A stretch of DNA of 64,000 nt from Candidatus Berkelbacteria bacterium (GCA_026397135.1 JAPLVL010000001.1:12753-76752), one strand, 5' to 3'. Counted from the stretch's first letter, positions 2,831 to 43,967 are shown. The notes: generated by a model not told the origin, from the letters alone. Program-made: numbers and translations.

Positions 2831-3952
2831 TTATTTCAACGCTTCGATTCCGGGCAATTTCTCGCCAGCCAAGAATTCCAATGCAGCTCCGCCACCAGTC
2901 GAAATGAAGCTAATATTCTTGTCTAATCCCTCTGATTTGACGAAACCAACCGTATCACCGCCGGCAATTACACTTGTCTTACCCACAAGCTGTGACATTG
3001 CTTTTGCGACTGCGAGCGAACCATCACGATATTTCTCCGATTCAGTATAGCCGAGATTTCCATTCCAAAGCACAGTCTCAGCTCCTTTGATGATCTCCGC
3101 AAATTTTTTCTGTGCATCTGGACCAATATCCATAATCTTCCATTTGCCACCGCTCTGCTCTTCCTTCAGCGAATCAATCGGCAAGATGATTTTCTTTGAT
3201 AATTTCTTCAGCATCTTCTCACAATCAGCCACCATTTCTGTATCATAAACAGATTCGCTAATCTCTTCACCCCTTGCCTTCAAGAAGGTATTTGCCACTC
3301 CTCCACCGATCAAAATCTTGTCAGCTTTCGGCGCCAATTTCTCAATCATGCCTGCTTTGTCTTTAATTTTAACACCGCCAACTACGATAATAAAGGGCTT
3401 TTTCGGACTCTCAATAATCTTGCCCAGATTTTCAATCTCGCTTTGCAAAAGTAATCCAGCAAAACTAGGCAAGAACTTAGTAATTGCTTCGACTGAAGCA
3501 TTGGCACGATGGCTGACAGCAAAAGCATCGTTAACATAAACATCAGCGTATTGCGCTAGCTCCTTCGCAAATCCTGCATCGTTTTCTTCTTCCCGCTTGT
3601 CCCAGCGCAAATTTTCCAATACCAAGATACCGCCAGGCTGAAGCGATTCGACCAGTTTTTCGACAGGAGCACCAAAAATTCCCGGCGCCATCGCCACCTT
3701 CAAATTCAGCATCCGCTGCAATTCCCTAGCAACCGGAGCGATTGAAGTCTCTTCGCTCGGCTTACCCTCTGGACGACCCAGATGAGTTCCAATAATTAAT
3801 TTGCACCGACTTTCGACTAGATATTTAATTGTCGGCAAAACGGCACGAATTCGGTTCAAATCGGAAATTTCTCCATCTTTGACCGGCACATTGAAATCAA
3901 CTCGCAAAAAAACTCTTTTGTCAGCTACTTCGGCCTCTTGAACTAATTTCAT
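2831..3952 (-). CDS. pgk: Phosphoglycerate kinase
   Basis: 373 aa. VFLRVDFNVP N-terminal signature and a GGGA..LEF..G.KLPG C-terminal hinge motif. Confidence 0.9.
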   Translation of the reverse strand: MKLVQEAEVADKRVFLRVDFNVPVKDGEISDLNRIRAVLPTIKYLVESRCKLIIGTHLGRPEGKPSEETSIAPVARELQRMLNLKVAMAPGIFGAPVEKLVESLQPGGILVLENLRWDKREEENDAGFAKELAQYADVYVNDAFAVSHRANASVEAITKFLPSFAGLLLQSEIENLGKIIESPKKPFIIVVGGVKIKDKAGMIEKLAPKADKILIGGGVANTFLKARGEEISESVYDTEMVADCEKMLKKLSKKIILPIDSLKEEQSGGKWKIMDIGPDAQKKFAEIIKGAETVLWNGNLGYTESEKYRDGSLAVAKAMSQLVGKTSVIAGGDTVGFVKSEGLDKNISFISTGGGAALEFLAGEKLPGIEALK

Positions 3953-4067
3953 CTTTCTCCAATTCTTAACTTTGATTTAATTTTAGCACTCAATCTTTTC
4001 ACAATCAAATGGCTTGCCCTCTGGACAAAAAATAGAGTAGAATAAAGATAGAAAATATCGGAGGGAA

Positions 4068-5033
4068 ATGAAATCAGTTGTCTCTATTCATCAGCTCGGT
4101 CAGATTTTTGATTTTATCAAAAAGGATTATCGTGTTCTCGGGACGAAGGAGGAAAACGGTAAGCCTATTTTCGGCGAAATCTCTAGCGCAAGAGAAATCC
4201 TAATCCCGACACCCAAGACGATTTTGCCTTTCAAAAAACTGATCTACCCTGCAATACTCGACCTGGCCAAAACGGAAAACGGAAAACCGGTCGCATTTTT
4301 CGGTATGACAAATTGTGATGCCGAAGCTCTCTGCGTCTTTTTGGACAAATTCAAAGACACCGGCCTCGTACCTCCGTTTAGAAATATCCTGGTAATTTCG
4401 ACGACCTGTGTCCCCGATGAAAATTGTTTCTGCACAGCCTTTGGCAACGGAAAAATTACAAATTTTGATCTCCACATCACCAAAGAAAAGGATCAGTACG
4501 CAATCTTCTCCGGTTCTGCGCTGGGGCGGAAAATTCTCAAACTGAACCGAATCAAAGTTTCAAATACTATATCGAAACCAACTGCAGTCAAGCTAGAAAA
4601 TGTCAGGAAAATCCAGTTAGAAAAACTAGGCAAGGCAATCGACGACAAAACCGGAAAACTGCCCTTCTGGCAGGAAATTGCAGACGAGTGTTTCGGCTGC
4701 GGCGCTTGTACTGCCGTCTGCCCGCTTTGTTTTTGCACCGGCAAAGACTTTGAAAATGATGCCGAGGGCGGCTGCAAACATTGCCTCAAATGGGATTCTT
4801 GCTATGCCAAAAGTTTCTCCGAAATTCAAAACCATTTCGACCTGCGCCCAAGCAATGTCAATCGGCTTTACAACTGGTATCATCACAAATTCGTCCGCTC
4901 ACCCAAGGAGGACGGCGAGATCCTCTGTACCGGTTGCGGCCGCTGTATCAAAGCCTGCCCTGCGTATCTGAACCAACATCGAATCATCGAAACTGTCCAA
5001 AATTATACAAAAGTAATCGACAAAAGCAAATAA
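4068..5033 (+). CDS. hydB: [NiFe] hydrogenase (group 3b-like) beta subunit, 2x[4Fe-4S] ferredoxin-like
   Basis: 321 aa. Two CxxCxxCxxxCP-type motifs (CFGCGACTAVCPLC and CTGCGRCIKACPAY). First gene of the beta-gamma-delta-alpha string. RBS GGAGGG before the ATG. Confidence 0.7.
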   Translation: MKSVVSIHQLGQIFDFIKKDYRVLGTKEENGKPIFGEISSAREILIPTPKTILPFKKLIYPAILDLAKTENGKPVAFFGMTNCDAEALCVFLDKFKDTGLVPPFRNILVISTTCVPDENCFCTAFGNGKITNFDLHITKEKDQYAIFSGSALGRKILKLNRIKVSNTISKPTAVKLENVRKIQLEKLGKAIDDKTGKLPFWQEIADECFGCGACTAVCPLCFCTGKDFENDAEGGCKHCLKWDSCYAKSFSEIQNHFDLRPSNVNRLYNWYHHKFVRSPKEDGEILCTGCGRCIKACPAYLNQHRIIETVQNYTKVIDKSK

Positions 5034-5044
5034 TCAATTCCAAA

Positions 5045-5854
5045 ATGCCAAACCAAGATTCAAAATTTAAATATACTTCATACGAAATTATCAAAAAGGA
5101 AGAGATGATGCCTGGCATGTTTCTCTTCCGATTGAAGGGTCGACTTGATTTCAAGCCCGGTCAATTTGTCCAAGCTGCGCTTGAACATTTCGGCGAAGGG
5201 ACATTTGCCCCCTGCTCCGATCCAAACCAAAAAGATTATTTCGAACTTTGCATCCGTGGTTGCGGTTCGACCTCAAACGGGCTAATCACTCTTTTGCCCG
5301 GTGATGAAATGCTCGTCAGGGGTCCTTACGGAAATGGCTGGCCAATCAAGAAACTCTGGTACAAAGACACTCTCCTGATCGCCGGCGGTATGGGGCTGGT
5401 CCCACTGCGACCGCTAATCTTCGAGATGCTACGAAGCAAGATCAACTTCGACAAAATCACTCTGGTTGCTGGCTTCAAGACAGATGAACATTTGCTTTTC
5501 TCACATGATTTGGAAATCTGGCGCAAGAAGTTATCCAAGGTCATCCCAGTAGTCGAAATCGGCAGCAAAAATTTCTGGGGTGAAATCGGAATGATCACCG
5601 AACCGCTCAAAAATCTAGTCTTCAACAAGAAAAAGACAATCGCTCTGATTTGCGGACCAGAAGTGATGGTGCCATTCGTCAACCAAGTTTTGGAGGAAAA
5701 AGGTCTCCCTCACAACCAAATTTATATTTCCTACGAGCGCCGAATGGAGTGCGGGATCGGCATCTGCCAACATTGCAATATTGGCAGCCACTTGGTCTGC
5801 AAAGACGGACCGATCTTCCGATACGATCAGATAAAGGAAGAGGTGGGCAAATGA
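5045..5854 (+). CDS. hydG: Hydrogenase gamma subunit: FAD/NAD(P)-binding oxidoreductase with C-terminal [2Fe-2S] (PyrK/FNR-like)
   Basis: Track ORF 4781..5854. Its first 88 codons overlap hydB in another frame, so the start is taken at ATG 5045 (MPNQDSK). FNR-like FAD region, LIAGGMGLVP NAD-binding motif, and C-terminal CGIGICQHCN...C cluster. Confidence 0.75.
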   Translation: MPNQDSKFKYTSYEIIKKEEMMPGMFLFRLKGRLDFKPGQFVQAALEHFGEGTFAPCSDPNQKDYFELCIRGCGSTSNGLITLLPGDEMLVRGPYGNGWPIKKLWYKDTLLIAGGMGLVPLRPLIFEMLRSKINFDKITLVAGFKTDEHLLFSHDLEIWRKKLSKVIPVVEIGSKNFWGEIGMITEPLKNLVFNKKKTIALICGPEVMVPFVNQVLEEKGLPHNQIYISYERRMECGIGICQHCNIGSHLVCKDGPIFRYDQIKEEVGK

Positions 5855-6567
5855 AAAAATCACTCGCCATATTTTCACTTACCTCCTGTGAGGGCTGTCA
5901 ATTCGAAATGTTAAATCACTACGAAACTTTCAACGGACTCCTAAAATACTTCGAGATCAAAAATTTTCGTCTAGGACAAGAAAATAATTTTGACGAAAAT
6001 TTCGACATTGCCATCATCGAAGGTAGCGCCGACGGCGAAGAACAAATTAAATTTTTGAAAAAAATACGCAAACAATCCAAGGTGATTGTCGCCATCGGTG
6101 CCTGCGCTCATCTAGGGGGCATTCAGTCCGAACGCAACAGTTTGCCACAGGGAATCTTCCACAAAAAACCGACCAAGATAGTCCCTGCTGTGATAAAAAC
6201 CGAATATATCATTCCGGGCTGTCCCATAAATCACGCGGAACTTTATCATTGTCTTTTGGATATTTACTGGGGCAAACAGTTTTTTCTGCCTGATTTAGCC
6301 GTTTGTTTCGAGTGTCGAGTGAATGAAAATGAATGTTTGATCAAATCTGGCAAACCCTGTCTTGGTCCAATCACCAGAAGCGGCTGCAACTCTGTCTGTG
6401 TCAACGCTGGCGAAGCTTGTCTCGGCTGCCGTGGAGCCAAACCAGAGCCAAACATCGAGAAATTGAAAAAAATCCTTGAGCCAATGATTGGAGAAAAAGA
6501 AACTGAAAATATAATGACAATTTATGGAGACTTAACAAATGAAATCGACCCCAGTGCAAAAAAATAA
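5851..6567 (+). CDS. hydD: [NiFe] hydrogenase small (delta) subunit
   Basis: Track ORF 5650..6567. Real start taken at ATG 5851 (MKKSLAIFSLTSCEGCQ), which overlaps the hydG stop (ATGA). Proximal-cluster Cys motif CEGC, then GxCA..GG and a C-terminal Cys pattern typical of group-3 small subunits. Confidence 0.75.
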   Translation: MKKSLAIFSLTSCEGCQFEMLNHYETFNGLLKYFEIKNFRLGQENNFDENFDIAIIEGSADGEEQIKFLKKIRKQSKVIVAIGACAHLGGIQSERNSLPQGIFHKKPTKIVPAVIKTEYIIPGCPINHAELYHCLLDIYWGKQFFLPDLAVCFECRVNENECLIKSGKPCLGPITRSGCNSVCVNAGEACLGCRGAKPEPNIEKLKKILEPMIGEKETENIMTIYGDLTNEIDPSAKK

Positions 6568-6853
6568 GATTCTTTCGCTAAGAAATCCGATAGTAATAAT
6601 CGTGATAGTGCTCCTTCTGATTTGGCTTTGTCCAAAACCATATTCACTATCAACAAACATCGTATCTATACCCAAATCTAGTCCTGGAAATAGCATTTCA
6701 AATCTAATCTATGAACAAGAGAGTTCCGGCTGGTGTATCGGAATCATTTATCCGGAAAAATCAAAATCTGATGTGCTTGGATTCAAGCTGGAAACTACCG
6801 GACTTGATTGTATCGGATTTCGTTTGCAGAAAAAGGGCCAGATTGCGCTTTAA
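6539..6853 (+). CDS. Hypothetical small membrane protein (doubtful)
   Basis: 104 aa with one TM segment. Overlaps the hydD 3' end and lies just outside the left inverted repeat of the GIY-YIG element. Confidence 0.25.
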   Translation: MKSTPVQKNKILSLRNPIVIIVIVLLLIWLCPKPYSLSTNIVSIPKSSPGNSISNLIYEQESSGWCIGIIYPEKSKSDVLGFKLETTGLDCIGFRLQKKGQIAL

Positions 6854-6885
6854 ACAATAAGAAGTAATTACCAATACACAAATAA

Positions 6886-7256
6886 ATAGTCATTCTGAGC
6901 CGATCTAGCTTGGAGGCGAAGAATCTAGCGAAGCGCAAAATGTTTGTTTACATTATCACAAACTATAAAAATAATGTTTTCTATATTGGCGTCACGAATA
7001 ATCTGACAAGACGAATATATGAACACAAAAATAAGTTATTTAGCAATTCCTTTTCCAGTAGATACAACTTATACAAATTAATTTGGTTCGAGGAGTTCAA
7101 TACTGCAATTGAAGCAATTACCGCTGAGAAAAAAAGGGATGGAAACGAGAAAGAAAAATTGAGATGATCAAGAAAACAAATCCCAATTTTCAGGAAATTG
7201 AATCTTATTAGTTTACGCTTCGCTAGATCCTTCGCAAGAACACTCAGGATGACTAT
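6886..7256. mobile_element. GIY-YIG gene-carrying element bounded by ~45-bp imperfect terminal inverted repeats, inserted between hydD and hydA
   Basis: Left end atagtcattctgagccgatctagcttggaggcgaagaatctagcgaagcg (~6886-6935). The reverse complement of the right end (~7216-7256) is atagtcatcctgagtgttcttgcgaaggatctagcgaagcgt. The termini share ATAGTCATYCTGAG and GCGAAGRATCTAGCGAAGCG. Confidence 0.6.
6940..7167 (+). CDS. GIY-YIG (URI-domain) nuclease superfamily protein, COG2827-like
   Basis: MFVYIITNYKNNVFYIGVTNNLTRRIYEHKN has the GIY...YIG...R...EH signature. The track ORF begins at 6910, but the ATG at 6940 follows the left inverted repeat directly. Confidence 0.65.
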   Translation: MFVYIITNYKNNVFYIGVTNNLTRRIYEHKNKLFSNSFSSRYNLYKLIWFEEFNTAIEAITAEKKRDGNEKEKLR

Positions 7257-7297
7257 TCAAGAGTCAACATTATCTGAAATTTAAATAAGGTAAAACA

Positions 7298-7606
7298 ATG
7301 GACAAGAATATCAAATTGATCAAGACTTTAATGATAATTATTGCCACCATCGACTCGATCGCAGCGATTGTCATATTTATCGGTATTAACCTTCTGGGAA
7401 ATATTGATTGCAGTTTGCCCCAAAAACCATGCTCAACCGAGTATTGGCCACTTTTGCTTTTATTGCCAACCATCATCTACACCATTGCTTCGCTCCAGAA
7501 GAACAAGATAGTTGGTATTGTCCTGAAATCAATAAGTATTCCCTTTTTGATAATATTCTTTCTTGTAACCTTAAATTACTTGTTAATGGCCAAAATAGGA
7601 AGGTAA
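7298..7606 (+). CDS. Hypothetical integral membrane protein (3 predicted TM helices)
   Basis: 102 aa, strongly hydrophobic. RBS aaggtaaaacaATG. Lies between the GIY-YIG element and hydA. Confidence 0.4.
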   Translation: MDKNIKLIKTLMIIIATIDSIAAIVIFIGINLLGNIDCSLPQKPCSTEYWPLLLLLPTIIYTIASLQKNKIVGIVLKSISIPFLIIFFLVTLNYLLMAKIGR

Positions 7607-7609
7607 AAA

Positions 7610-8860
7610 ATGGAAACAGCTGTTCCCAAAATTGAAGGTCATGCCGCATTTTATACTCATTTAAAGAGTGGCCATGTCGATAAAGCTAGAATCATCGGAC
7701 TCGAAAATGATCGTTTCGTTGAGAGAATTTTGGTTGGAAGAAAATACTGGGAAGCACCGATAATTACTTCTCGCATTTGCGGAATTTGCCCAGTTATCCA
7801 CAACATCACCTCGACAAGAGCGATAGAGAATGCCTGCAACATCGAAGTGAGCAATCAGACAATTCTACTCCGGAAGCTGATGCTAGCAGGACAGATGGTC
7901 CAGAGCCATTCTCTCCATCTCTACCTTCTGGTTTTGCCTGATTTTGTCGGAGCAAGTTCCTCCTTCGAGTTACAAAGGGATCATCCTGAGATTTTTCAGA
8001 ACGCAATTGAATTGAAGAAATATGCTGACAGAATTATCGAGACTGTCGGCGGCCGAGCCGTTCATCCCGTCGCTTCCGTTCCTGGCGGCTTCAAATCTTT
8101 CCCCACCAAGGAGAAGATTACTGCCCTAATTCCAATTGGGCAGAAGACAACAGAGATTGCCGAAACAACTCTCCGACTTTTTGCTACATTTAAGTATCCA
8201 CAGTTGAAACGAGAGATAATCTCGAGTGCATTATATCTTGATCACGAATACGCAATCTACAATGGCGATATCTGGAACAGTAAAGGCGATATTTTCAAAG
8301 CAGAGAAATATCATGACTACATTTATGAGGAGCTAAAACCTTACACTCGGGCAAAATTCGGAACACTCAAGGGATACGAGATGGTCGTCGGCGCTGCCGC
8401 CAGACTCAATATCAACGGTTTCAAAAACCTAAGCCCAAAAACACAGGAGCTGATTGAGGAATTTAATATTACGCTTCCACTTAATAATCCGTTTGATAAT
8501 ATTATGGCTCAGGCAATCGAGAATCATCACTTCGCCGCGCAATCAGTCGAGCTTTTGGAGTATTTCCAGAAAACAGGTGTCAAAAATGAAAAATTAGTTG
8601 TACCCTCCGATTTTGGCAAAGGCACCGCCGCTTGTGAGGCTCCGCGAGGAACACTTTTTCATTATTACAATCTCGACAAAGATGGATTTATCGAAAAGTG
8701 TGACATTATCACACCTACAGTTCAGACCCTGCCCGCAATAGAATTTGACCTAAAGAATCTCTCACCTCTTCTCAAGGATCTATCTCCATCCGAGAGAAGC
8801 ACTCTGATCGAAACCTTGATTCGAGCATATGACCCCTGCATTACCTGTGCCACACATTAA
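7610..8860 (+). CDS. hydA: [NiFe] hydrogenase large (alpha) subunit; ends exactly at the L5 motif histidine
   Basis: 416 aa. N-terminal RICGICPVIH (RxCGxC L1 motif). C-terminal DPCITCATH followed directly by the stop codon, so there is no C-terminal extension. Confidence 0.85.
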   Translation: METAVPKIEGHAAFYTHLKSGHVDKARIIGLENDRFVERILVGRKYWEAPIITSRICGICPVIHNITSTRAIENACNIEVSNQTILLRKLMLAGQMVQSHSLHLYLLVLPDFVGASSSFELQRDHPEIFQNAIELKKYADRIIETVGGRAVHPVASVPGGFKSFPTKEKITALIPIGQKTTEIAETTLRLFATFKYPQLKREIISSALYLDHEYAIYNGDIWNSKGDIFKAEKYHDYIYEELKPYTRAKFGTLKGYEMVVGAAARLNINGFKNLSPKTQELIEEFNITLPLNNPFDNIMAQAIENHHFAAQSVELLEYFQKTGVKNEKLVVPSDFGKGTAACEAPRGTLFHYYNLDKDGFIEKCDIITPTVQTLPAIEFDLKNLSPLLKDLSPSERSTLIETLIRAYDPCITCATH

Positions 8861-10390: not shown

Positions 10391-10570
10391 GTCATCCTGA
10401 GGAATCGAAGGACCCATTCGGCTACGCTCAGCAGGTTCTAGAGCATGTGACCTGGGCTCGCAAAAAATGCGCCACGCTAGATTCCCATACTTACCGGTCA
10501 TCGACTCCAAGGTCGCTCAGACTCGAGGAGCAGGCAGGTTCGCCTTCAAGCATCATCTGCCCAGAATGAC
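10391..10570. repeat. Miniature (~180 bp, no ORF) copy of the GTCATYCTGAG-terminated inverted-repeat element, in a GC-rich intergenic region
   Basis: Plus-strand gtcatcctgagg at ~10391 and cccagaatgac (reverse complement of gtcattctggg) at ~10560. An internal cgctagattc is shared with the termini of the GIY-YIG element. Confidence 0.5.
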
Positions 10571-10602
10571 GGAAAATCACAATTTCACAACTCCTTGGCA
10601 AA

Positions 10603-10830
10603 TTAGTCCCGACAGGCCATTTCATCATGCGTTTTTATAAATTTCAAATTTTCTTTTGCTTCCTTGGCACTAATTTTCGACAAAGCTCGACCATCATGCA
10701 TCAGTATCCAATCCCCTTTCCTGACCTGCGGTGCAAGCGAAATGTCAGCCGAATATTCTCTGTCTTCATAATCAAAGAAGGCAATATTGCCCTTAATTTG
10801 TTTGATTTTACCCGGAATTGCTAGACACAT
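10603..10830 (-). CDS. hypC: Hydrogenase maturation factor HypC/HupF family
   Basis: 75 aa, begins MCLAIPGKI. This is the HypC N-terminal MC[LI][AG][IV]P signature, with the essential Cys2, on a small OB-fold-sized protein. Confidence 0.8.
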   Translation of the reverse strand: MCLAIPGKIKQIKGNIAFFDYEDREYSADISLAPQVRKGDWILMHDGRALSKISAKEAKENLKFIKTHDEMACRD

Positions 10831-10848
10831 AATTTTCCTATTAGTTAA

Positions 10849-11502
10849 CTATTGATTATTCGAACGACCAGATGAATCCCGTCTTAGACTTTTTTCTTTG
10901 TTTTTGACCAAAATCAATTTAACCTTTTCCAGCCGAAAAATCTTCTGTTTGAACTCATGCATTTCAGTCTTATCCACCAACCAATCATAGACGTATTCGG
11001 ATAGGTGTCTATAGATACCATCGCTTTCAAACGGATCATAAAGCATCCTCGTTATTATAACTCCGATACTTACACTATCATCTTTTTTGGCTCGTCCGCG
11101 AAAATATTCGCCCAAACTTTCACATGAGGCAATCACCTCGGCTGGCGTATCCCGTCTGGATCTAGAAGGATTATTAAACAATTCCTTGTAGCATTCGAAT
11201 AGGACACCCTCTCTCTTTTGAGCAATCCGAAACAGCATATCAGTAACAGCAGTGTCATCCCCTGGGAGAACTTTCTTGCCACGCAAAGTTTCATCCAGTA
11301 CGATCAAATAATTCCGACGAAGATAAATATCCAGATGCTCTGGAAATTCCAAAAAATCGTGAATCACAGGCTCGACCTGACGATGAAGCTGACCAAGCTC
11401 TTGACTGGACAAACCATCTAGATTTATTTCATCCAATTTCTTGATTATCGGAAAACAGGAAATTATTTTTGTTAATTTTTGGCAATCGAGAAATTCCATC
11501 AA
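10849..11502 (-). CDS. Hypothetical protein; N-terminal Cys-x2-(L)-T-K motif related to the CGEIT proteins upstream
   Basis: 217 aa. MMEFLDCQKLTKIISCFPIIKKLDEINL aligns loosely with the N-termini of the two upstream proteins. Overlaps the upstream gene by 4 nt (operon). Confidence 0.45.
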   Translation of the reverse strand: MMEFLDCQKLTKIISCFPIIKKLDEINLDGLSSQELGQLHRQVEPVIHDFLEFPEHLDIYLRRNYLIVLDETLRGKKVLPGDDTAVTDMLFRIAQKREGVLFECYKELFNNPSRSRRDTPAEVIASCESLGEYFRGRAKKDDSVSIGVIITRMLYDPFESDGIYRHLSEYVYDWLVDKTEMHEFKQKIFRLEKVKLILVKNKEKSLRRDSSGRSNNQ

Positions 11503-12617
11503 AATTTATCCTTCTTGATTTCACGAATTGCTCCATCGCTCGTACCAATCAAGATCCTATCACCATCAACGAGAAGCGAAGTAATGATGATTATTTCATT
11601 CCCTTTTTTGGAATCGATCATATGGGAGAAAATATATTTATCCTGCATCGGATCATAAACTTTTAGCTCATTGAGCCAAGCAATACAAACCTGGCCGCGG
11701 TCAGTAAAGACAGGCTTGATATCCGGATTCAGAGAATAAGGCAATAGAAGTGGTCGATTGTCTCCTCTGATCACGCGAAGACCTCCGTCTATTTCAACAG
11801 CAATCGTATCCTCAAAAACACTGATTTCATGGATTGATCTTGTTGGATCCGGAGAGTTCTTGCCATTATCTGAGACATTAATATTACGAAGTAATTCCTG
11901 CGTTTCAATATTATAGACATAAATATTACCTAGATTTGTGCCAACATAGAGCTTGCCATCTCTGACTGCCAAAGCGGTGAAAATTTCCTGGCTATATTTC
12001 AGCTCCGGCTCGAGGAAAACCTCCTGACTGCCATCAAAATTCACCTTTTGGACAAAGCCATAACCGCCAACAAAGAGGTAGTCGCCCTCACCTTTGGTCG
12101 CACAGGTAGGAGAATCAACAATCCCCATCCCCCCTACACCGTTTACCAGATGAGGAAAACCATTCTGATATTTGTTTACATACCCAGATCGAAAATCGAT
12201 CGTAAACACCCACTCACTTGAAGCCATTACCTCGCCCTTGAATCGACTCCCCATCAAATAATAATCAGTTTGGGTATAATTTTTGTCGAAGAAATTGAGT
12301 TTATTATGATTATCACTGAAAACAACTTGGTCGCCAAGAAGAAGCAGATTCTCCACTCGCAAATCCCCAACACTAAGTACCCTGCTTTCGTGCCAACTCG
12401 ACCAGTATTCCTGCCAATAATCCGACATTATCCGCCGTGTTTCCAGAACAATCTGGTCCTTGATTCCAATTGCTTCGCTGGCACTAAACTTCTCGATCGC
12501 CCGATCGAGATCGTATTGAAATTTCTTCAAGTCATTTAAATTGTCTGTAATTTCACCGCAAGTCATAATAATATAAATTCCGCTTTTTTCTTCTTGAAAT
12601 ATTTTCCCTCTACCCAT
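11499..12617 (-). CDS. Beta-propeller (PQQ/BamB-like repeat) protein with N-terminal M-T-CGEIT motif
   Basis: 372 aa. Repeats such as KLYVGTNLGNIYVYNIETQELL and RILIGTSDGAIREI. Probable true start at the internal Met (MTCGEITDNL, ~12566). No signal peptide. Confidence 0.5.
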   Translation of the reverse strand: MGRGKIFQEEKSGIYIIMTCGEITDNLNDLKKFQYDLDRAIEKFSASEAIGIKDQIVLETRRIMSDYWQEYWSSWHESRVLSVGDLRVENLLLLGDQVVFSDNHNKLNFFDKNYTQTDYYLMGSRFKGEVMASSEWVFTIDFRSGYVNKYQNGFPHLVNGVGGMGIVDSPTCATKGEGDYLFVGGYGFVQKVNFDGSQEVFLEPELKYSQEIFTALAVRDGKLYVGTNLGNIYVYNIETQELLRNINVSDNGKNSPDPTRSIHEISVFEDTIAVEIDGGLRVIRGDNRPLLLPYSLNPDIKPVFTDRGQVCIAWLNELKVYDPMQDKYIFSHMIDSKKGNEIIIITSLLVDGDRILIGTSDGAIREIKKDKF

Positions 12618-13924
12618 TTTCTCAAATAAAGAACCACCCCACCGGGCCTTTCGTCTTTTGGTGCAACTCTGGATTTTGCTTCTTCGAGGTCAACTGATGG
12701 GTCATCGACAATAATGATGCCGTTTGTCATCCCCTTGCCAATTGTTCTACAGATTCCAGCGTCTTTTACAAAAACGACGCCGCCTTCAACCCACGAAAAG
12801 ACAATATTGTCACCAAATTTTTCAGGGATAGTAAAATTAATAACACCATGGTCAATTCTCAAGCTGTTAATATACGGGCTACTTTCGAAATATGTCACTT
12901 CGCGAACTGTCTCATAAGGATTCACAAAACCAACTTTATCTTTTTCTTCATCATAATATGCGATCGTGGTAGATTCACCGGGGGAAGTTGCTCCTGGTTG
13001 ACGATTACGAATTCTATTTCGCTTTGATTTCAGAAATATTGTTGGCGATAATGTTGGTCTGACTGAGATTTGTTCAAATCCAATATTTTCAATCAAAAAT
13101 GTACCGCCAGCCGTACCAAAACAAATTTCTGTGGTTAATTGGTCCTGCTTCGCCAAAAAATCCTTGACGTAAACCGTACCGCCGGAAGCTTTGGGAGCAA
13201 TCTCACCCCAACGCAATGTATTTATGATAATTGTGCCATTTTGCATTACTTCCCCGATAACACCAACTGCTTCGCCAACCTCCAGTCGTCCACCAAGCAT
13301 CTCTGGGGCAAGTTTTGGCACATTATCAGGCTGATTTTGTTCGAACTTTTCCAGTTTTACATCTCCAGCAAGCATTCTCAAAAAAGCAAACTGTTCTAGA
13401 CGATCAATCATAATATTGCCACCGTTTAAAGACGAACCAAAATTATGACAACGAGGGTCGTTTGAATAATTTGACAGATCATCAAATTTAATCCTGATCG
13501 GCTTCTTGCTTTGCTTGTAAATTGAGAAGAAAAGCCTAATTGCCTCAATTTGAAATGCGTCTGAAATTTCTCCGCTGCTAAACTGACCTTTAAGATATTC
13601 CATCAACCGATCAAAGTCAGACTGCCTAATCGACTTGTCTCTGTGTAATACTGGAACAGAATGCGGATCTACAATAATATCATTAACAGATGCTTTAACA
13701 AACGAACGCTTTGTTTGAGGCATACCGATTGCTGTCAAAAAATCCAGATCCAGCCGCGGGTATTCAGTCAGAAACTCATCGATTAACAATTTAATTTTAT
13801 CAGCAAAACCACGGGTATCTCCTTGCTTTTCACGACTCAAAGACAGAGAGAATTTCCGTTCAAGAGCTACCAAACTATTCATCATTTTTGTAATTTCACC
13901 GCAAATCATCACTTCATCACCCAC
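12563..13924 (-). CDS. GXGXG beta-helix-like repeat protein (GltB-domain-3/FwdC-like segments) with N-terminal M-I-CGEIT motif
   Basis: 453 aa. Segments GGRLEVGEAVGVIGEVMQNGTIIIN...GGTVYVKD and GGVVFVKDAGICRTIGKGMTNGIIIVDD resemble GXGXG repeats. Probable start MICGEIT (~13909). Confidence 0.45.
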   Translation of the reverse strand: MGDEVMICGEITKMMNSLVALERKFSLSLSREKQGDTRGFADKIKLLIDEFLTEYPRLDLDFLTAIGMPQTKRSFVKASVNDIIVDPHSVPVLHRDKSIRQSDFDRLMEYLKGQFSSGEISDAFQIEAIRLFFSIYKQSKKPIRIKFDDLSNYSNDPRCHNFGSSLNGGNIMIDRLEQFAFLRMLAGDVKLEKFEQNQPDNVPKLAPEMLGGRLEVGEAVGVIGEVMQNGTIIINTLRWGEIAPKASGGTVYVKDFLAKQDQLTTEICFGTAGGTFLIENIGFEQISVRPTLSPTIFLKSKRNRIRNRQPGATSPGESTTIAYYDEEKDKVGFVNPYETVREVTYFESSPYINSLRIDHGVINFTIPEKFGDNIVFSWVEGGVVFVKDAGICRTIGKGMTNGIIIVDDPSVDLEEAKSRVAPKDERPGGVVLYLRKWVEGKYFKKKKAEFILL

Positions 13925-13965
13925 TTAATTCTTACTGCTTACTTCTTAATCCTTGCTACTTATTC
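13925..13965. repeat. Heptamer-periodic CTTAAT/CTTACT-type intercistronic repeat
   Basis: ttaattcttactgcttacttcttaatccttgctacttattc, the same family as at 23598, 34238 and 47490. Confidence 0.5.
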
Positions 13966-16515
13966 GTACCCAAATTTCTTGATGAACCAAACCTTGACTA
14001 TTTGAACCAAAAATATATATACAGCGGCCAACCCCAGAATAATCAGGAAAAAGAGTGCTGGTAGCGGCGTGAAGCCAAACCACCTAGCCAAAACAGTGTA
14101 GGGGATAATCGCCCCGACAAAAATAACTGCGATTAATGTATAGAGCAAATATTTGCTCGCTCTGCTCTGGATAAGAGGGATTTTCTTGGTTCGGATAATC
14201 AGGACGACCAGAGTTTGGGTCAAGAGTGACTCAACAAACCAACCAGTGCGAAAGAGTGGAGGCGTGGCGCGAAAGACATACCACATAATACCGAAGGTAG
14301 CAAAATCAAAGAGCGAACTAACTGGGCCGATCGTCCACATAAATTCCTTGATGAAGTTAACATCCCACGGTCGCGGCTTCTGTAAGTCTTCTGCGTCAAC
14401 ATTATCAAGCGGCAGGGCTACCTGGGACAAATCATAGAGAAAATTGTTGAGCAGTACCTGCGGCGGCAACATCGGCAGAAATGGTAGGAGAATACTGGCA
14501 CCAGTCATACTGATCATATTTCCTAAGTTAGAGCTCGCTCCCATTTTGATGTACTTAATCACATTGACAAAGGTCTTCCTGCCCTCGATAACGCAATCAC
14601 ATAGAACTCTGAGATCCTTTTCCAATAGGATAATCGCGGCCGTTTCCTTGGCAATATCCATACCAGTGTTGACCGAAATCCCAACATCAGCCGACTTCAA
14701 GGCTGGTGCATCATTGACTCCATCACCAAGGTAACCGACAACATGACCATTCGACTGGAGCGCTTTGATAATTTTTTCCTTTTGCAAAGGCGTCAGCCTG
14801 ACAAAAACGTTTGCCTTTGCCACCAGCTCTCGCAGGACATGTTCGCTCGCGCTGCTAATCTCATTGCCATTTACGATACCGCTGATCGAAAAATTAACTT
14901 CGTTACAAATTTTCCTGGTCACCATTTCGTTGTCGCCTGAAAGAATCTTGAGAGATACTCCCAAGCCTGCCAAGCTCGTAATAGTATCGCTAACATCAGG
15001 TTTGGGCGGATCGAGGAAGGTTACAAATCCCTGGAAAACCAAATCAGATTCGTCTTCAAATTGAAGCTTGGTTTTGCTACGAATCTTCTTGGTCGCTATT
15101 GCCAAAACACGAAAACCTTCGCGGCTGAGCGATTCATATAGAGATATAATCTTTTCCTTTGATTTCTTGGAAAGAGGTAGAGCGACCTCTTTCAGCGAGA
15201 AATGGCTTGATTTGGCAATTATTTCCTCCGGCGCTCCCTTTGCGACCAAGAGATCCTTGCCAGCACGACGCAACACGACCGACATCATTCGCCTTTCAAA
15301 ATCGTAGGGCAGTTCATCAATTTTCTCGTAATGAGACGTTTCAATTTTTTGATGCTTTAGAATCGCTTGATCCAAAACATTTTTCAAACCGGTTTCAAAA
15401 TGACTATTCAAATATGCATAACGAAAAATCGAGATGTCTTCCCTACCCTTAGCGTCGCAATATTTAATCAGAGCGATACTGTCGAGTGTCAGCGTGCCCG
15501 TCTTGTCGGTACAGAGGATATCCATCGCACCGAAATTTTGGATCGAATCCAGCTTTTTGACAATTATTTTTTTCTTCTCCATCTGCATCGCGCCGCGGGA
15601 GAGATTGACCGTCACAATCATCGGCAACATCTCAGGTGCCAAGCCAACTGCTACCGCCAAGGAAAATAATAACGCATCGACAATGTTACCCTTGAAAATC
15701 GCGTTAAAGAAGAAGATAAATGCTGCCAAGATGATAATCAAACGAATCATCAGCCAGGTGTAGGATTTAATACCTTTTTCGAAGGCCGTCTCAACTCCGA
15801 CTTTGGAAATATCTTCACTCAACATTCCAAACTGAGTTCCCTTGCCGATTGCTAAGACAACTCCGATTCCGGTGCCTCCGACAACACTTGAGCCCATGAA
15901 AATAATATTATCGGAGTCTAAAATATCGTCACTTTTAATTTCGCTTGCCCATGAATCTTTGATCACCGGGAAAGATTCGCCGTTTAGGGACGACTGATTA
16001 AGATACAGACGATTGGCTGAAATCAGCCTAATATCAGCTGGAACCATATCCCCAACCCCAAGCGCGACCAGGTCACCTGGCACCAATTCCTCCAGATTTG
16101 TCGTCCTTTCGTGGCCATCACGAATTACCTTGACTTTGATTTTGACTCTCTCGGCTAGTTTCTGAGCATTTCGGTTGGCTCGATATTCCTGAACAAAAGA
16201 AAGGATCACACTCAAAACAGCCAGAGCAATCACAATAATTGAGTTTATTTGTTCACCGAAATAGAAAGAAACCCCAGCCACCACAAAGAGAGTGATAACT
16301 AGAGGGTTAGCAAACTTAGACAAGAGCTGAACAACTGGCCCATATTTCTGAGCCGCAATTTTGTTGGCACCATAAAAACGCTGGCGGCGGCGGACTTCCC
16401 GCTCCGACAAACCTTTTCTGCCTGTTTTGTATTGCTGCAAAGCTTTCTCCGGAGCAAGACGACTAATTTCAAAAACAAGGCTTTGGGTTACGACCTGATT
16501 TTTCATTCCCTCCAT
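13960..16515 (-). CDS. mgtA: P-type ATPase, MgtA-like (Mg2+-importing) cation transporter
   Basis: 851 aa. Phosphorylation motif CTDKTGTLT, hinge GDGVNDAPAL, and an MgtA-like N-terminal cytoplasmic region. Confidence 0.8.
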   Translation of the reverse strand: MEGMKNQVVTQSLVFEISRLAPEKALQQYKTGRKGLSEREVRRRQRFYGANKIAAQKYGPVVQLLSKFANPLVITLFVVAGVSFYFGEQINSIIVIALAVLSVILSFVQEYRANRNAQKLAERVKIKVKVIRDGHERTTNLEELVPGDLVALGVGDMVPADIRLISANRLYLNQSSLNGESFPVIKDSWASEIKSDDILDSDNIIFMGSSVVGGTGIGVVLAIGKGTQFGMLSEDISKVGVETAFEKGIKSYTWLMIRLIIILAAFIFFFNAIFKGNIVDALLFSLAVAVGLAPEMLPMIVTVNLSRGAMQMEKKKIIVKKLDSIQNFGAMDILCTDKTGTLTLDSIALIKYCDAKGREDISIFRYAYLNSHFETGLKNVLDQAILKHQKIETSHYEKIDELPYDFERRMMSVVLRRAGKDLLVAKGAPEEIIAKSSHFSLKEVALPLSKKSKEKIISLYESLSREGFRVLAIATKKIRSKTKLQFEDESDLVFQGFVTFLDPPKPDVSDTITSLAGLGVSLKILSGDNEMVTRKICNEVNFSISGIVNGNEISSASEHVLRELVAKANVFVRLTPLQKEKIIKALQSNGHVVGYLGDGVNDAPALKSADVGISVNTGMDIAKETAAIILLEKDLRVLCDCVIEGRKTFVNVIKYIKMGASSNLGNMISMTGASILLPFLPMLPPQVLLNNFLYDLSQVALPLDNVDAEDLQKPRPWDVNFIKEFMWTIGPVSSLFDFATFGIMWYVFRATPPLFRTGWFVESLLTQTLVVLIIRTKKIPLIQSRASKYLLYTLIAVIFVGAIIPYTVLARWFGFTPLPALFFLIILGLAAVYIFLVQIVKVWFIKKFGYE

Positions 16516-22471: not shown

Positions 22472-23572
22472 CTATTTCACGATCAAATGAATAATATCTT
22501 TGTAAGTAATCGCCAAAATCAACAATATAAGTATAGCAAATCCAACCAAATGAACAATGTTTTCAACATTTTCTTTCAGTACCCGTTTCTTGGTAATTTT
22601 TTCGATAATCGTAAGGAGAGCACGACTTCCATCAAGGGAAGGGAAGGGCAGAGAATTAACTAGACCCAGATTGATCGACAAAATTGCGATAAACTGTAAG
22701 AAAGCAATAATTCCCGCTCGAGCTGCTACTCCGCTAAGATTGAAAATTGCGACTGGACCGCCAACTTGATCCGAAACATGACCAGTAGAGAAAAGCTCCT
22801 TGACGAAACTACCCAGAAAATCAAAGGTAATTTTCAGAATCTCGTAGGACTCACGCAAACTAACAATCGGTGCCTTGTACCAAGGGACTCGAACGATTGA
22901 CTGATTCGTAATCGACACCCCGAGTGGAGCGCTCTTATCCTCTGAAATAGTAACTGTTTTCTCTAGCGTTTGATTGTCCCGTTTTAATTCAATAATTATT
23001 GAATTACCCAAATGTGCAGTTGTAAAATTGCTAACATCGGCCAGCGACTTCGGCCGAACAGCCTGATCCTGATATTTAAGCTCAATAATTTGATCACCGG
23101 CTTCGAGCCCACCCTTAGCAGCAGGAGAATCAGCCAATGTTTCCACTATGAATACTTGTGCCTTAACCACTTTTCCCGGAATCATCTCCGACGGGGTCGC
23201 AATCGGTGTCATGCCGACAGTGAAGCCAATTGTGATCAAAATCCAAGCCAACAGAAAATTCATCACTACACCGGCAATCGAGATGAAAAAACGACGGAGA
23301 GGAGATTGATTGTTGTAAGCTCTGGGATCTTTCGACTCTTCTTCTTCACCCAACATTTGGACATACCCACCAAAAAGCAAAAGGCCAATTGAATATTTGG
23401 TTTCTTTTCTCTTGAAGGTATAGATTCTGGGTGGAAATCCAATCGAAAATTCCAGCACTTTGACCCCTGCAGTTTTGGCTGCCAGAAAGTGACCCAACTC
23501 ATGAACAAGCACCAGGAGACCGAGACAAACAATAAAGGCAACAATTGTTAGTAACATTTGTATTTTTTCCAA
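22472..23572 (-). CDS. rseP: Site-2 protease RseP-family (M50 zinc metalloprotease with PDZ domain)
   Basis: 366 aa. HELGHFLAAK HExxH in the first TM region, a PDZ segment, and LDGS near the C-terminus. Confidence 0.85.
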   Translation of the reverse strand: MEKIQMLLTIVAFIVCLGLLVLVHELGHFLAAKTAGVKVLEFSIGFPPRIYTFKRKETKYSIGLLLFGGYVQMLGEEEESKDPRAYNNQSPLRRFFISIAGVVMNFLLAWILITIGFTVGMTPIATPSEMIPGKVVKAQVFIVETLADSPAAKGGLEAGDQIIELKYQDQAVRPKSLADVSNFTTAHLGNSIIIELKRDNQTLEKTVTISEDKSAPLGVSITNQSIVRVPWYKAPIVSLRESYEILKITFDFLGSFVKELFSTGHVSDQVGGPVAIFNLSGVAARAGIIAFLQFIAILSINLGLVNSLPFPSLDGSRALLTIIEKITKKRVLKENVENIVHLVGFAILILLILAITYKDIIHLIVK

Positions 23573-23597
23573 TAATTAGAGAGACCCATGACCACAC

Positions 23598-23660
23598 ATT
23601 CTTAATTCTTACTGCTTAATTCTGAATTCTTAATCCTGACTCCTGACTCCTGAAATAATT
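23598..23660. repeat. Heptamer-periodic intercistronic repeat (cttaattcttactgcttaattctgaattcttaatcctgactcctgactcctga)
   Basis: Between the frr end and the rseP start. The minus-strand sense reads TCAGGAGTCAGGAGTCAGGATTAAGAATTCAGAATTAAGCAGTAAGAATTAAGAA, i.e. SD-like AGGAG/AGGAT plus TAA stops. Confidence 0.55.
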
Positions 23661-34227: not shown

Positions 34228-34237
34228 TTTTCCACCA

Positions 34238-34310
34238 GAATTAAGAATTAAGAATTAAGAATTAAGTAACATTTTACTTACTGCTTAATCCTTACTGCTT
34301 ACTACTGAAT
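34238..34310. repeat. Heptamer-periodic intercistronic repeat (attaagaattaagaattaagaattaag…cttactgcttaatccttactgcttact)
   Basis: Between the gatA end and the ppiB start; same family as at 23598 and 47490. Confidence 0.55.
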
Positions 34311-41732: not shown

Positions 41733-43967
41733 CTACTTGTCCGACAGATAGTAAATAGTCGGAGTGGATCCAGGGCTGGCCAAATCAGGCGACTCGAGCC
41801 GCGCAGAAAGGGTAAATCCGTGTCCATCCGATTTATAACCGTACGACCAGCCAGCAGCGTCTTTTGGATCCTTGGGTAAGGCCGCCAAATAGGTCGGTAC
41901 CAAAGCTTGTTCTACCACATTCGCAGCTGTGTTTAATTTAATTTCTGTAGCCGCCAGCGGATAGGATGAATTGGCTTTCATGTATTTTACAAAGGCAGCT
42001 TTGACCGCAGATAGATCAATTCGGCGCTGGGCATCATTCTTGGCTGCCGTCTGTGCGGCCACCGAATCTGTACTTCCGGCCGCCACAACTACTGTCGGCT
42101 GGACAATCTTGGCCGGTTCAGCAAAGGTATTTTTGACACCGTAATCGGAAAAATTGAATTTTACTTCCATCTTTATAATCGGATAAGAGGCAGCCATATC
42201 CATTGTAAAATCAACCTGCTTGATCAAATGATCTTTGACTCCGAGCCAGATATCGCCGGTGATATTCTGAACCATGTCTCCTTCGATTCCAAATGACTTC
42301 AGGGAATCACCAATATCTATGCTGTCAAACTGATAATGATAGACCTGCTCACCATTTAGCTTTTCGGTCGCCACCCTTGCTCCATTCACAGAAAGACCGG
42401 ATTTGTCAGCATTTTCAGCGAAGAAAACACTGCTTCCTAATTTCGTCGGCAGAGTGTACTCGAGCCAACTATCATTTGTTTGATTGGAAGCAAAGGTAAC
42501 GTTACTGCTATTAACCCAGAGTTTATCGAGAGATTGGCGAATCTCAAGTGCCTTTTGATTTTCACCACTGAAATTTAAATTCACATCATTTCCATCAGTA
42601 CTCATGGCAGCTTTGACATCACAACTCAAAGCAAGATAATTCGAGGGTGAGGTTGTTGAGAAAATATCGCTACTCGTACTTCCTGTGCTGGCAGCAGTAG
42701 TACCAGTTGCAGTATTTGTTGTGGTGTTTGTGGTTGTAGCTGCTGCCAAGATAATCTTGGTTGGCGAAATCATAGAGGTTGTCGAGGTTGGATTTGCTTT
42801 CAGAATCGGAGCAACGATAGATGAGCCGGTCGTTTTGTCGACAGTCATCGCAATCGAACCGGTAATTTTGTAATCCGTTTGAGCTTTCATTGCTGAATAT
42901 GATTGCAACAAAGAAGTTCCGCCGTCAATTCCTAATCCTCCCCACAATTTCTGAAGTCCGTATTTGTCATAGATATTCTCGAGTCCGAGAGAAACTTTGC
43001 CATTTTCGGTCAAATATACAAGAGTTGAGATTGTCGCAAGTGGCAAGACAACTAGGACAAAAACAATTAAAAGGATAAACATAAGGCGTTTCTTGGGCTG
43101 AAGATTCTTCCATGATTCAAATATTTTCAAAGACTTCTTCGGTTTCTGATCGGGCGAGACAGGAGCAGCTGGGGCTGTCGGATTTGCAATAGGAGTTGGT
43201 GAAGCTAGGGGAGTAGCTAATACTGGAGTTTCGACTTTTGGTTCAACAGGGCTTATTGGCTTCGCGTCAGTCTTCTCTGTCTGATCCTCAGTCTTATCGT
43301 CTTTGATTGTTGTATCCTTGGGCACTTCCGTTGTCGGTGCGGGCGAAATCAAAGCGCCAACTCCCGACGGAGCAGCACTTTTTCCGAAAAGATCCCCTCC
43401 AAGTCCAGGAGTTGCCGTTGCTGCTGGTTGAGCAGTCGGATTTGCCGGCAATGATGGTGTTGCTGAAACATCTGGGCTCGCGGCCGGCGTTGGATCGTCA
43501 GCCATCGGAATATCAGCAATATTTGTATCAGGCATAGCGGCTGGAACATCAGAAGACAGGATTGGAGGTGGCGTCACTGGCACAATATTCGGCACATTAG
43601 AATCGGCTGGAGGATTCGGTGGCAAAGTCACAGGAGAAGCTGTAGCTGCCGAGTCATTCGCTGCAGTCGCATCGGGAGTCGGAGGCGTAGCCGGAGTTAA
43701 TGGCACGCCAGTTTGACCCGCATCATTGCTGTCTTCCACAGGTAGTTTGAATGGCTCAGGCGTTCCTGCATAGTGAACATCGCCCGCCAAATTGCCAATT
43801 ACCTTTGGCGCGGGATTTTCTCCCGGCACATCAAGCGGTTCATCCCAAGGACTACTTCCACCAGTTGAAGCTTGAGGTGGAGCTGGAACTGGAGTTGGTG
43901 TAGCTGCAGCCGGAGAAGCGGCAGGAACATTACTTTGATCTGCTAAATTATTTTGTGTGTCAGCCAT
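41733..43967 (-). CDS. Large membrane protein: ~280-aa N-terminal Pro/Ala/Thr-rich disordered region, internal TM helix, C-terminal GspG/type-IV-pilin-like domain
   Basis: 744 aa. C-terminus ALPKDPKDAAGWSYGYKSDGHGFTLSARL resembles the pseudopilin/pilin C-terminal beta-sheet motif (PKDPWG..Y.Y…F.L.S.G). No prepilin leader. Confidence 0.5.
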   Translation of the reverse strand: MADTQNNLADQSNVPAASPAAATPTPVPAPPQASTGGSSPWDEPLDVPGENPAPKVIGNLAGDVHYAGTPEPFKLPVEDSNDAGQTGVPLTPATPPTPDATAANDSAATASPVTLPPNPPADSNVPNIVPVTPPPILSSDVPAAMPDTNIADIPMADDPTPAASPDVSATPSLPANPTAQPAATATPGLGGDLFGKSAAPSGVGALISPAPTTEVPKDTTIKDDKTEDQTEKTDAKPISPVEPKVETPVLATPLASPTPIANPTAPAAPVSPDQKPKKSLKIFESWKNLQPKKRLMFILLIVFVLVVLPLATISTLVYLTENGKVSLGLENIYDKYGLQKLWGGLGIDGGTSLLQSYSAMKAQTDYKITGSIAMTVDKTTGSSIVAPILKANPTSTTSMISPTKIILAAATTTNTTTNTATGTTAASTGSTSSDIFSTTSPSNYLALSCDVKAAMSTDGNDVNLNFSGENQKALEIRQSLDKLWVNSSNVTFASNQTNDSWLEYTLPTKLGSSVFFAENADKSGLSVNGARVATEKLNGEQVYHYQFDSIDIGDSLKSFGIEGDMVQNITGDIWLGVKDHLIKQVDFTMDMAASYPIIKMEVKFNFSDYGVKNTFAEPAKIVQPTVVVAAGSTDSVAAQTAAKNDAQRRIDLSAVKAAFVKYMKANSSYPLAATEIKLNTAANVVEQALVPTYLAALPKDPKDAAGWSYGYKSDGHGFTLSARLESPDLASPGSTPTIYYLSDK

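Follow-up and report, generated by a model that had tools for sequence, protein, structure and literature searches.

Three genes beside hypC in a Candidatus Berkelbacteria genome probably belong to a multigene superfamily with a shared N-terminal cysteine module

In a 64,000-nucleotide stretch of a metagenome-assembled genome (MAG) of a Candidatus Berkelbacteria bacterium (GCA_026397135.1, JAPLVL010000001.1:12753-76752; hereafter, the window), three consecutive genes, termed here A, B and C, encode proteins that share an N-terminal module of some 50 residues built around a cysteine and that are followed, on the same strand, by hypC. The three genes are best viewed as an outlying group within a rare multigene superfamily that has to date been encountered only in genomes of the candidate phyla radiation (CPR; Patescibacteria). 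That this superfamily is real and is not linked to hydrogenase is highly probable. The best overall explanation, combining such a CPR superfamily with a module that serves as an assembly or docking helix, is offered tentatively and falls short of an even chance. No description of the module was found in literature searches; the module and the gene arrays in which it occurs are apparently undescribed.

A module shared by three adjacent genes

All four open reading frames (ORFs) were found on the minus strand, where the first-pass annotation had placed them. Gene A (12563-13909) encodes 448 residues when read from the ATG and begins MICGEITKMM; the longest ORF of this gene opens with a GTG at 13924, and the NCBI annotation of the source MAG (locus tag NTW50_00175) likewise starts the protein at MICGEIT. 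Gene B (11499-12566) encodes a protein of 355 residues beginning MTCGEITDNL, with the NCBI start being identical, and gene C (10849-11499) encodes a protein of 216 residues beginning MEFLDCQKLTKII. The N-terminus of the latter reads MEFLDCQKLTKII, such that its module is offset by three residues relative to those of A and B. Finally, hypC (10603-10830) encodes 75 residues beginning MCLAIP. The stop codon of A and the start codon of B overlap by 4 nt (ATGA), B and C overlap by 1 nt (TGATG) or by 4 nt if a TTG start is used, and C is separated from hypC by an 18-nt spacer that includes an AGGAAA ribosome-binding site and in which no terminator-like site was found. The earlier description of four genes tightly coupled by 4-nt overlaps thus applies to A and B, applies to B and C only with the TTG start and does not apply to C and hypC. 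Genes encoding a P-type cation ATPase and GAPDH lie upstream of A, and the base composition of the A-B-C island is unremarkable within the window.

The module corresponds to residues 1-50 of A (13760-13909; M-I-C-G-E-I-T at its start, with helices predicted at residues 3-26 and 32-49), residues 1-50 of B (12417-12566; M-T-C-G-E-I-T) and residues 1-55 of C (11335-11499), all on the minus strand. The common N-terminal cysteine motif reported at first reading was readily recovered, with the cysteine at positions 3, 3 and 6, respectively, and codons 3-7 of B (TGC GGT GAA ATT ACA) are the same 15 nt as in A. Of 59 long ORF segments considered in the window, the adjacent A, B and C are the only ones to start with M-x(1-5)-C-x-x-[ILMF]-[TS]-x-x-[ILMA], a motif for which a composition-based estimate gives a chance rate of approximately 2e-4 per gene. 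The sharing of the motif exceeds chance. Every close homologue of A starts with M-x-C-x-x-[IL]-T, with three such proteins beginning MGCEKLTKII, MNCTTLTKII and MTCQEITNLI.

The first-pass annotation had allowed that the similarity might disappear once start codons were re-annotated. When this was done, the outcome was the reverse, with related loci (designated here by L numbers) gaining motifs. Several called genes (L001 11302-12789, L005 3778-4176 and L006 8450) carry spurious N-terminal extensions in which an intergenic repeat is translated, yielding such peptides as VIPAKAGIQ and PACRQAGQ. For the gene at L001 11302, the protein truly begins at residue 123 of the called product, with MNCEKLTKLV. 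Other array genes (L001 8205, 13090 and 17310; L003 13743) had been called too short, with loss of the cysteine motif.

The anatomy of the module was considered using 88 non-redundant modules from at least five genomes, anchored on the cysteine. Over a length of approximately 50 residues, the module comprises the initial methionine, an N-cap residue, an invariant cysteine that opens helix 1, a turn and helix 2, with heptad spacing of the conserved positions (Cys at 0, I/L at +3, T/S at +4, I/L at +7, I/L/V at +10, F/L at +17 and L/F at +21). The cysteine occupies position 3 in 45 of the 88 modules (range, 2-12) and is preceded by N, T, D or S, classic helix N-cap residues, in 70, while E, K or Q predominates at +2. 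An I or L appears at +3 in 73 modules, T or S at +4 in 78, a hydrophobic residue (I, L, V or M) at +7 in 80, I, L or V at +10 in 68 and F or L at +17 in 62, and hydrophobic periodicity peaks at 3.3-3.5 residues. Because of the N-cap, the heptad pattern and this periodicity, the cysteine is predicted from sequence to take the first of the core positions in a helix of heptad pattern, which begins at the N-terminus.

Synonymous codons are free to vary across the modules (Cys: TGT 42, TGC 28; Thr: ACA 40, ACG 8, ACT 7, ACC 5; many Ile and Leu codons are used). Since the residues nonetheless stay the same, it is the peptide that is under selection, rather than the mRNA. Exactly one cysteine appears in the first 60 residues of 54 of 77 modules, and neither CxxC nor HxxxCxxC was found in the first 110 residues of any of the 77. 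Given a single cysteine per module, its role would therefore be between chains, in a disulfide or a shared metal site, or as a site of modification. No transmembrane segment or signal peptide was detected in A, B or C, where the maximum 19-residue hydropathy is below 1.5. The variable positions of the motif track the genome over the C-terminal family, a weak effect (permutation p ~0.03), with CEKLT being seen in the genome of a JGI contig, CQEIT in L003, L004 and L008, and CGEIT in the window. The superfamily is defined here by a cysteine no further than ~12 residues into the protein, with an N-cap residue before it and [IL] at +3, [TS] at +4, [IL] at +7 and [ILV] at +10 after it, together with a variable C-terminal repeat domain and module-bearing neighbours. 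A, B and C all fall within this definition.

Beyond the first ~50-55 residues, no mutual similarity of A, B and C was detectable by BLAST or phmmer, in agreement with the earlier view of three otherwise unrelated proteins. In protein A, the Cys-capped helical module is followed by a helical domain reaching approximately residue 130 and then by a right-handed beta-helix, FwdC/GXGXG-like, with a conserved C-terminal tail (GGVVLYLRKW...KKKKAEF). A test for the right-handed GXGXG beta-helix fold was positive. At the same time, A scored 22.2 bits against TIGR03122, for which the cut-off is 130.65, and gave no PF01493 match; the likeness of its beta-helix to FwdC is confined to the fold. Relative to the GXGXG domain of FwdC, FhcC and glutamate synthase, A possesses an additional helical domain at the N-terminus and a conserved C-terminal tail of its own, and Fwd or Glt partner genes are absent from the vicinity of its gene.

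The body of protein B is beta-propeller-like, with weak Pfam matches to WD40-like and propeller families, and ends in ...GTSDGAIREIKK. The order of an A gene followed by a propeller gene (whose product ends in a GTSDGAIR-like sequence) recurs in the JGI contig (L001) and in L003, where the propeller homologues also bear the module (MNCEKLTKLV and MECRQITQLM). Protein C, predicted to be probably all-helical, found no family match in scans of Pfam, NCBIfam and PADLOC/PHROGs; its single-sequence AlphaFold2 (AF2) model, with a pLDDT of 43, is unreliable and does not establish the fold. Foldseek searches of the PDB and BFVD returned no significant structural match (BFVD, E<=0.001).

Distribution of the superfamily and organization of its arrays

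An exhaustive HMMER search of 1.84 billion cluster representatives with a profile of the A family revealed 94 matching proteins at E<=1e-3, 45 of them at E<=1e-10. A cysteine is present in the first 15 residues of approximately 55 of the 62 matches bearing the A-type C-terminal tail, with the usual starts being MNC, MTC or MDC and then x-x-[IL]-T. Of the remainder, at least three (P0016, P0019 and P0020) result from miscalled start codons, as an in-frame start further upstream restores the motif. The 94 matches also include approximately 22 generic GXGXG-repeat proteins without the motif. Further A-family paralogues (NTW50_05215, 05325 and 05340) are encoded on another contig of the Berkelbacteria MAG from which the window was taken.

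Other searches returned less. In a word-based homologue search, A gave four matches and B only itself. A profile built from six module sequences scores independent modules at 5-25 bits, too weak for a database-wide search, and when a module-only profile was considered against a set of 5.8 billion proteins, none of the 62 word candidates scored. A profile search of genome contigs revealed no locus beyond one contig already known, while the same approach with metagenome contigs yielded one short matching contig. Finally, Pfam, NCBIfam, PADLOC and PHROGs models and PDB sequences gave no match over the module.

In four other genomes, module genes occur in same-strand arrays of 5 to ~50 genes (L001, L002, L006 and L011; L003; L004 and L008; L005), in which nearly every gene starts with the motif, whatever its C-terminal family. 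The array genes are co-oriented and often translationally coupled. When their C-terminal parts were compared by BLAST, these were found to comprise two families, one A-like with a beta-helix and one with WG repeats, alongside many singletons, the last including propellers, a 740-residue TPR-like protein and a HEAT-like repeat protein. L001, L002, L006 and L011 are parts of one 971.6-kb JGI contig, for which the sequence considered covers 33.7-58.5 and 70.2-104.6 kb. The array on this contig, comprising same-strand genes of 300-500 codons, ends at ~97.9 kb; if continuous across the gap between 58.5 and 70.2 kb, it would extend over at least 64 kb and include roughly 50 genes, corresponding to at least 6.6% of the contig. 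L003 is a 15-kb NCBI contig occupied by an array throughout, L004 and L008 come from a single contig, in a MAG bearing the title 'uncultured Candidatus Saccharibacteria bacterium', with ~24 module genes in a row, most starting MNCQEIT, and L005 contains five module genes.

Examination of these loci also revealed what lies beside or within the arrays. Positions 1-10035 of L004 contain a conjugative type IV secretion set (a VirD4-relaxase fusion, a TrbC-like pilin, PrgI, TraC-like and VirB4 proteins and an M23 peptidase), after which comes an ABC-3C conflict system (CTD10, MC6 and a DUF2326 ABC ATPase), with the two sets being located directly upstream of the array. The JGI array is closed by genes encoding a 1167-residue orphan (L011 14729-18232) and a protein of at least 1025 residues (L011 18278-21353), both without the cysteine module. 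The latter contains a P-loop NTPase domain at residues ~430-530, which scores as AAA_5 (E=1.4e-8) and, weakly, as nSTAND3 (4e-4). In L003, an A-family gene is split into parts encoding 390 N-terminal residues (3123-4295) and 79 C-terminal residues (4296-4535), probably owing to an error of assembly or to a frameshift or nonsense mutation.

In those JGI array genes that follow an intergenic gap, the ATG is preceded, at a distance of 5-7 nt, by a TATAAT box (e.g., ctagTATAATaaatatATG), with such sites being found at 3633, 5737, 7241, 9989, 12105 and 13815 of L006, at 13036 of L001 and at ~7975 of L007. This spacing is the geometry expected of leaderless mRNAs. The box is missing where genes are translationally coupled within a run. 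In the window and in L003, AT-rich intergenic elements made up of 7-nt units (AGnAnTA / AAGAATT) were seen, at 13924-13960, 23565-23650 and 34235-34300 of the former and at 5830-5865, 11855-11895 and 13685-13712 of the latter. The 18-mer TAAGCAGTAAGAATTAAG is present without any change in two copies in the window and in one copy in L003, a locus from a different genome, and at 34235-34300 of the window the units are in inverted arrangement. The element upstream of A (13924-13960) was not reported by Tandem Repeats Finder (run on 10400-14100). These elements could serve as promoters, operators or terminators.

Relation to hypC and the neighbouring hydrogenase

The assignment of hypC is secure: the product of 10603-10830 matches Pfam HupF_HypC (PF01455) at E=1e-18 and TIGR00074 with 58.5 bits, and scores 67.6 bits in the HypC/HupF family test, where the cut-off is 28.5. 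On the opposite, plus strand, genes of a group-3b-type [NiFe] hydrogenase (4068-8860; Fer4_22, NAD_binding_1/DHODB_Fe-S_bind, Oxidored_q6 and NiFeSe_Hases) end 1.7 kb from hypC, encoding the Fe-S and FAD/NAD subunits as well as the small and large subunits, the last at 7610-8860. The large subunit terminates exactly at ...DPCITCATH, without a C-terminal extension, such that cleavage by a maturation endopeptidase would be unneeded. A small GIY-YIG gene (UPF0213-like; 6910-7167) sits in the ~1-kb gap between the small- and large-subunit genes, with similar genes being found at 805-1131 and 16616-16882 of L001 and at 11600-11887 of L006. Apart from hypC, no hyp genes were seen among the window genes scanned. 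Ten other large window genes scanned are housekeeping genes, with the exception of a minus-strand ORF at 41733-43967 that encodes a 744-residue protein with no Pfam match at E<=1e-5 and that lies amid well-annotated housekeeping genes.

Given this setting, the first-pass annotation had offered two readings of the shared N-terminus, namely as part of a lineage-specific hydrogenase assembly or delivery system and as a docking or recognition tag. In the former, A, B and C would be hydrogenase maturation or delivery accessories acting with HypC via their N-terminal cysteine. Such a role would be in line with the co-orientation of the three genes with hypC, the terminator-free 18-nt spacer and probable co-transcription, as well as with a group-3b hydrogenase only 1.7 kb away. 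HypC function itself depends on an N-terminal cysteine, and an N-terminal X-X-Cys might conceivably act as a ligand for Ni or Fe. The likeness to the HypC/HupF N-terminus is, however, limited to a functionally important cysteine near the N-terminus. In HypC, Cys2 is part of MC[LIV][GA][LIV]P and leads into an OB-fold beta-strand; in the module, the cysteine is mostly at position 3 (ranging from 2 to 12) and leads into a helix. Membership of A, B and C in the HypC/HupF family was accordingly rejected, with their cysteines at 3, 3 and 6 being followed by a predicted helix and no match to HupF_HypC being obtained even at E<=1.

The distribution of the superfamily also argues against a hydrogenase role. 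In 149 kb of partly overlapping array loci from the four other genomes, no homologue of hypC or of the large- or small-subunit genes was found (best tblastn E=0.19), and precomputed Pfam lists for these loci contain no hyp or hydrogenase families. The same MAG encodes further family members on another contig. Moreover, a family with hypC homology is already known as a regular neighbour of both types of CPR group-3b hydrogenases, without A, B and C (Jaffe et al., 2020; PMC7304191). Lack of co-occurrence with hydrogenase or hypC in other genomes had been named at the outset as grounds for abandoning the hydrogenase reading, and this is what the fetched array loci presented. As such, a hydrogenase role is largely refuted and must be considered very improbable. 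The alternative of a docking or recognition tag fits all of the findings and comes close to the best explanation offered here. In the simplest reading, hypC is a neighbour that functionally belongs to the adjacent group-3b hydrogenase and is unrelated to the module family, while A, B and C form a small island of that family lodged beside the hydrogenase locus. Co-transcription of A, B and C with hypC is possible but would be incidental.

Proposed function and competing explanations

What might such a module do? The C-terminal domains of the superfamily are mutually unrelated and of repeat or solenoid type (FwdC-like beta-helix, beta-propeller, WG repeat, TPR- or HEAT-like and all-alpha). The module, in turn, may act as an assembly or docking helix. 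The modules of co-expressed members would bundle together or with one common partner, thereby placing their single N-terminal cysteines in one layer of the core, where these could be stapled by a disulfide or by a shared metal or thiolate. The product would be complexes displaying several different binding heads, and in the window, the translationally coupled A, B and C would form one such set. Assembly or cysteine stapling as the specific mechanism is possible, if doubtful. In the AF2 model of A, helix 1 is of low confidence (pLDDT 45-51) and the remainder confident, a pattern that would fit a helix requiring a partner.

Several points weigh against the assembly helix. The cysteine ranges from position 2 to 12, though it is at 3 in about half of the modules, and the proline at +11 in C would kink the helix. 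The absence of a signal peptide suggests a cytoplasmic location, which disfavours disulfides. Amphipathic helices with a heptad pattern are also used for targeting or for binding to membranes. The motif variants that characterize each genome could have arisen from recent duplication or gene conversion rather than from co-adaptation, and no conserved partner gene was found beside the arrays in the fetched loci.

By analogy, the superfamily would appear to be a further case of the known multigene families in which an N-terminal adaptor is conserved. In the PE/PPE proteins of Mycobacterium and in LXG/WXG100 proteins, a conserved N-terminal helix-turn-helix is likewise joined to many unrelated C-terminal domains in numerous clustered paralogues, and it is through this part that the proteins pair and are recognized by a shared machine. 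By contrast, no sequence similarity to these proteins was detected, neither a YxxxD/E signal nor an EssC/EccC-type ATPase was found near the arrays, and the invariant N-terminal cysteine has no counterpart in them. Substrates of a type VII secretion system (WXG100/LXG) were accordingly rejected as an identity, with WxG being present in 1 of 77 modules and no FtsK/SpoIIIE-type ATPase appearing in the Pfam lists of neighbours.

A further parallel comes from F-box or BTB families with repeat domains, such as the ubiquitination-related families reported to be expanded in tandem arrays in amoeba-associated Chlamydiae (PMC4209131). There too, a small N-terminal helical adaptor precedes variable repeats, with tandem expansion having occurred in host-dependent, reduced genomes. 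The module proteins differ in giving no F-box or BTB Pfam matches, in having no known core complex for docking of the module and in retaining the cysteine as their sole invariant residue. N-terminal coiled coils stapled by cysteines are familiar from the tenascin assembly domain, collectins and COMP/matrilins, and in Braun's lipoprotein (Lpp) of bacteria, Cys1 is directly followed by a trimeric coiled coil. As in the module, the cysteine of such proteins stands right at the start of the heptads and the binding domains at the other end of the chain, with stapling yielding multi-headed complexes. Those proteins are, however, extracellular or lipid-modified after signal-peptide cleavage, whereas the module proteins lack a signal peptide or lipobox and their oligomerization is only presumed. 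Lastly, effector-associated domains and ABC-3C systems offer the precedent of one short helical N-terminal domain carried by different proteins encoded side by side, and two of the arrays abut NTPase systems. Here the differences are that the NTPases lack the module, that no Pfam or PADLOC matches were obtained and that most arrays have no adjacent NTPase.

Other known families were tried and rejected. Many anti-sigma factors start M-x-C-x-E, yet a ZAS anti-sigma identity (zf-HC2, PF13490) found no backing, since HxxxCxxC or CxxC was seen in 0 of 77 modules, no zf-HC2 match was obtained and no anti-sigma chain was recovered in a PDB profile search at E<=10. A lipoprotein would not be expected to have its cysteine at position 2-12 with no preceding hydrophobic region, and a lipobox-like string was found in 1 of 77 modules. 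The helix of a microcompartment encapsulation peptide is present, but no shell families (PF00936/PF03319) appear in the neighbour lists, in which not every small window ORF was scanned. For a phage tail fibre or tailspike anchor, there was no PHROGs match below E=0.03, no tblastn match in 50,697 phage records and no BFVD match at E<=0.001.

Of the competing functional explanations, that in which the N-terminal cysteine helix is a targeting tag, read by a common export, packaging or delivery machine such that the repeat proteins would be secreted or displayed at the surface by these episymbionts for use on their hosts, is considered unlikely. The extreme N-terminal placement of the module, with the cysteine so often at position 3 (45/88), is typical of signals, the L004 array lies directly downstream of type IV secretion genes on the same strand, and the JGI array is very large for a ~1-Mb genome. 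Yet this adjacency is restricted to one locus, being absent from the window, the JGI arrays, L003 and L005, known type IV secretion signals are C-terminal, A, B and C have no hydrophobic signal peptide and no similarity to viral proteins was found. The company kept by the same L004 array, which follows the ABC-3C system, together with the 1167-residue orphan and the P-loop NTPase protein of at least 1025 residues that follow the JGI array on the same strand, could instead point to an adaptor in NTPase-based conflict or defence. In such a system, the module would behave like effector-associated (Death-like) domains, recruiting sensors or effectors to a core NTPase by like-with-like contacts, and the architecture of a short helical N-terminal adaptor joined to sensor-type WD40, TPR or beta-helix repeats would be as expected. 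The flanking NTPases, however, lack the module at their N-termini, no PADLOC or Pfam effector-associated domain matches were obtained and no such NTPase adjoins the module genes in the window, L003, L005, L009 or L010, rendering this explanation improbable.

Were the cysteine instead S-acylated or otherwise modified, it could, together with the amphipathic helix, anchor soluble proteins to the membrane. An invariant single cysteine close to the N-terminus and followed by an amphipathic helix would suit this, as would those members that start MGC (P0002), recalling the dual-acylation motif MGC of eukaryotes, or an Lpp lacking its signal peptide. The residue before the cysteine is, however, mostly N, D or T and not G, a signal peptide is missing, the lipobox-like string is confined to the single module noted above, no conserved enzyme gene is found in or beside the arrays and we know of no bacterial acyltransferase for such a motif; covalent modification is thus quite improbable. 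Finally, conservation of the 5' coding sequence as a translation-initiation or mRNA element, for instance in leaderless transcripts, is hardly credible. While many JGI array genes have TATAAT 5-7 nt before the ATG, and A and B are identical over the 15 nt of codons 3-7, synonymous positions vary freely with the amino acids being kept, and internal genes of translationally coupled runs carry the motif to the same degree as genes with a ribosome-binding site (such as A in the window and L003).

Returning to the assembly helix, a more far-reaching proposal can be made, albeit one that is rather unlikely in its full extent. In an undescribed CPR assembly system, present at least in Berkelbacteria and in a lineage labelled Saccharibacteria, a Cys-capped coiled coil would join interchangeable repeat proteins into combinatorial multi-headed complexes, with the arrays serving as a diversified binding repertoire. 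If true, arrays of up to ~50 genes, taking up at least 6.6% of a ~1-Mb genome, would plausibly be devoted to interaction with hosts or mobile elements.

At the level of annotation, the present findings remove a false lead, as A, B and C should not be annotated as hydrogenase maturation factors. Recognition of the module unites more than 100 'hypothetical proteins' of different folds into one system, mends many mis-called start codons and offers experiments a concrete point of attack, namely one cysteine and the N-terminal ~50 residues. The genomes of CPR bacteria are tiny, and functions have yet to be assigned to most of the proteins specific to these lineages. That at least 64 kb of a ~1-Mb genome should be spent on ~50 genes bearing the same module is a large investment, which suggests that the superfamily has an important function, possibly one related to the host.

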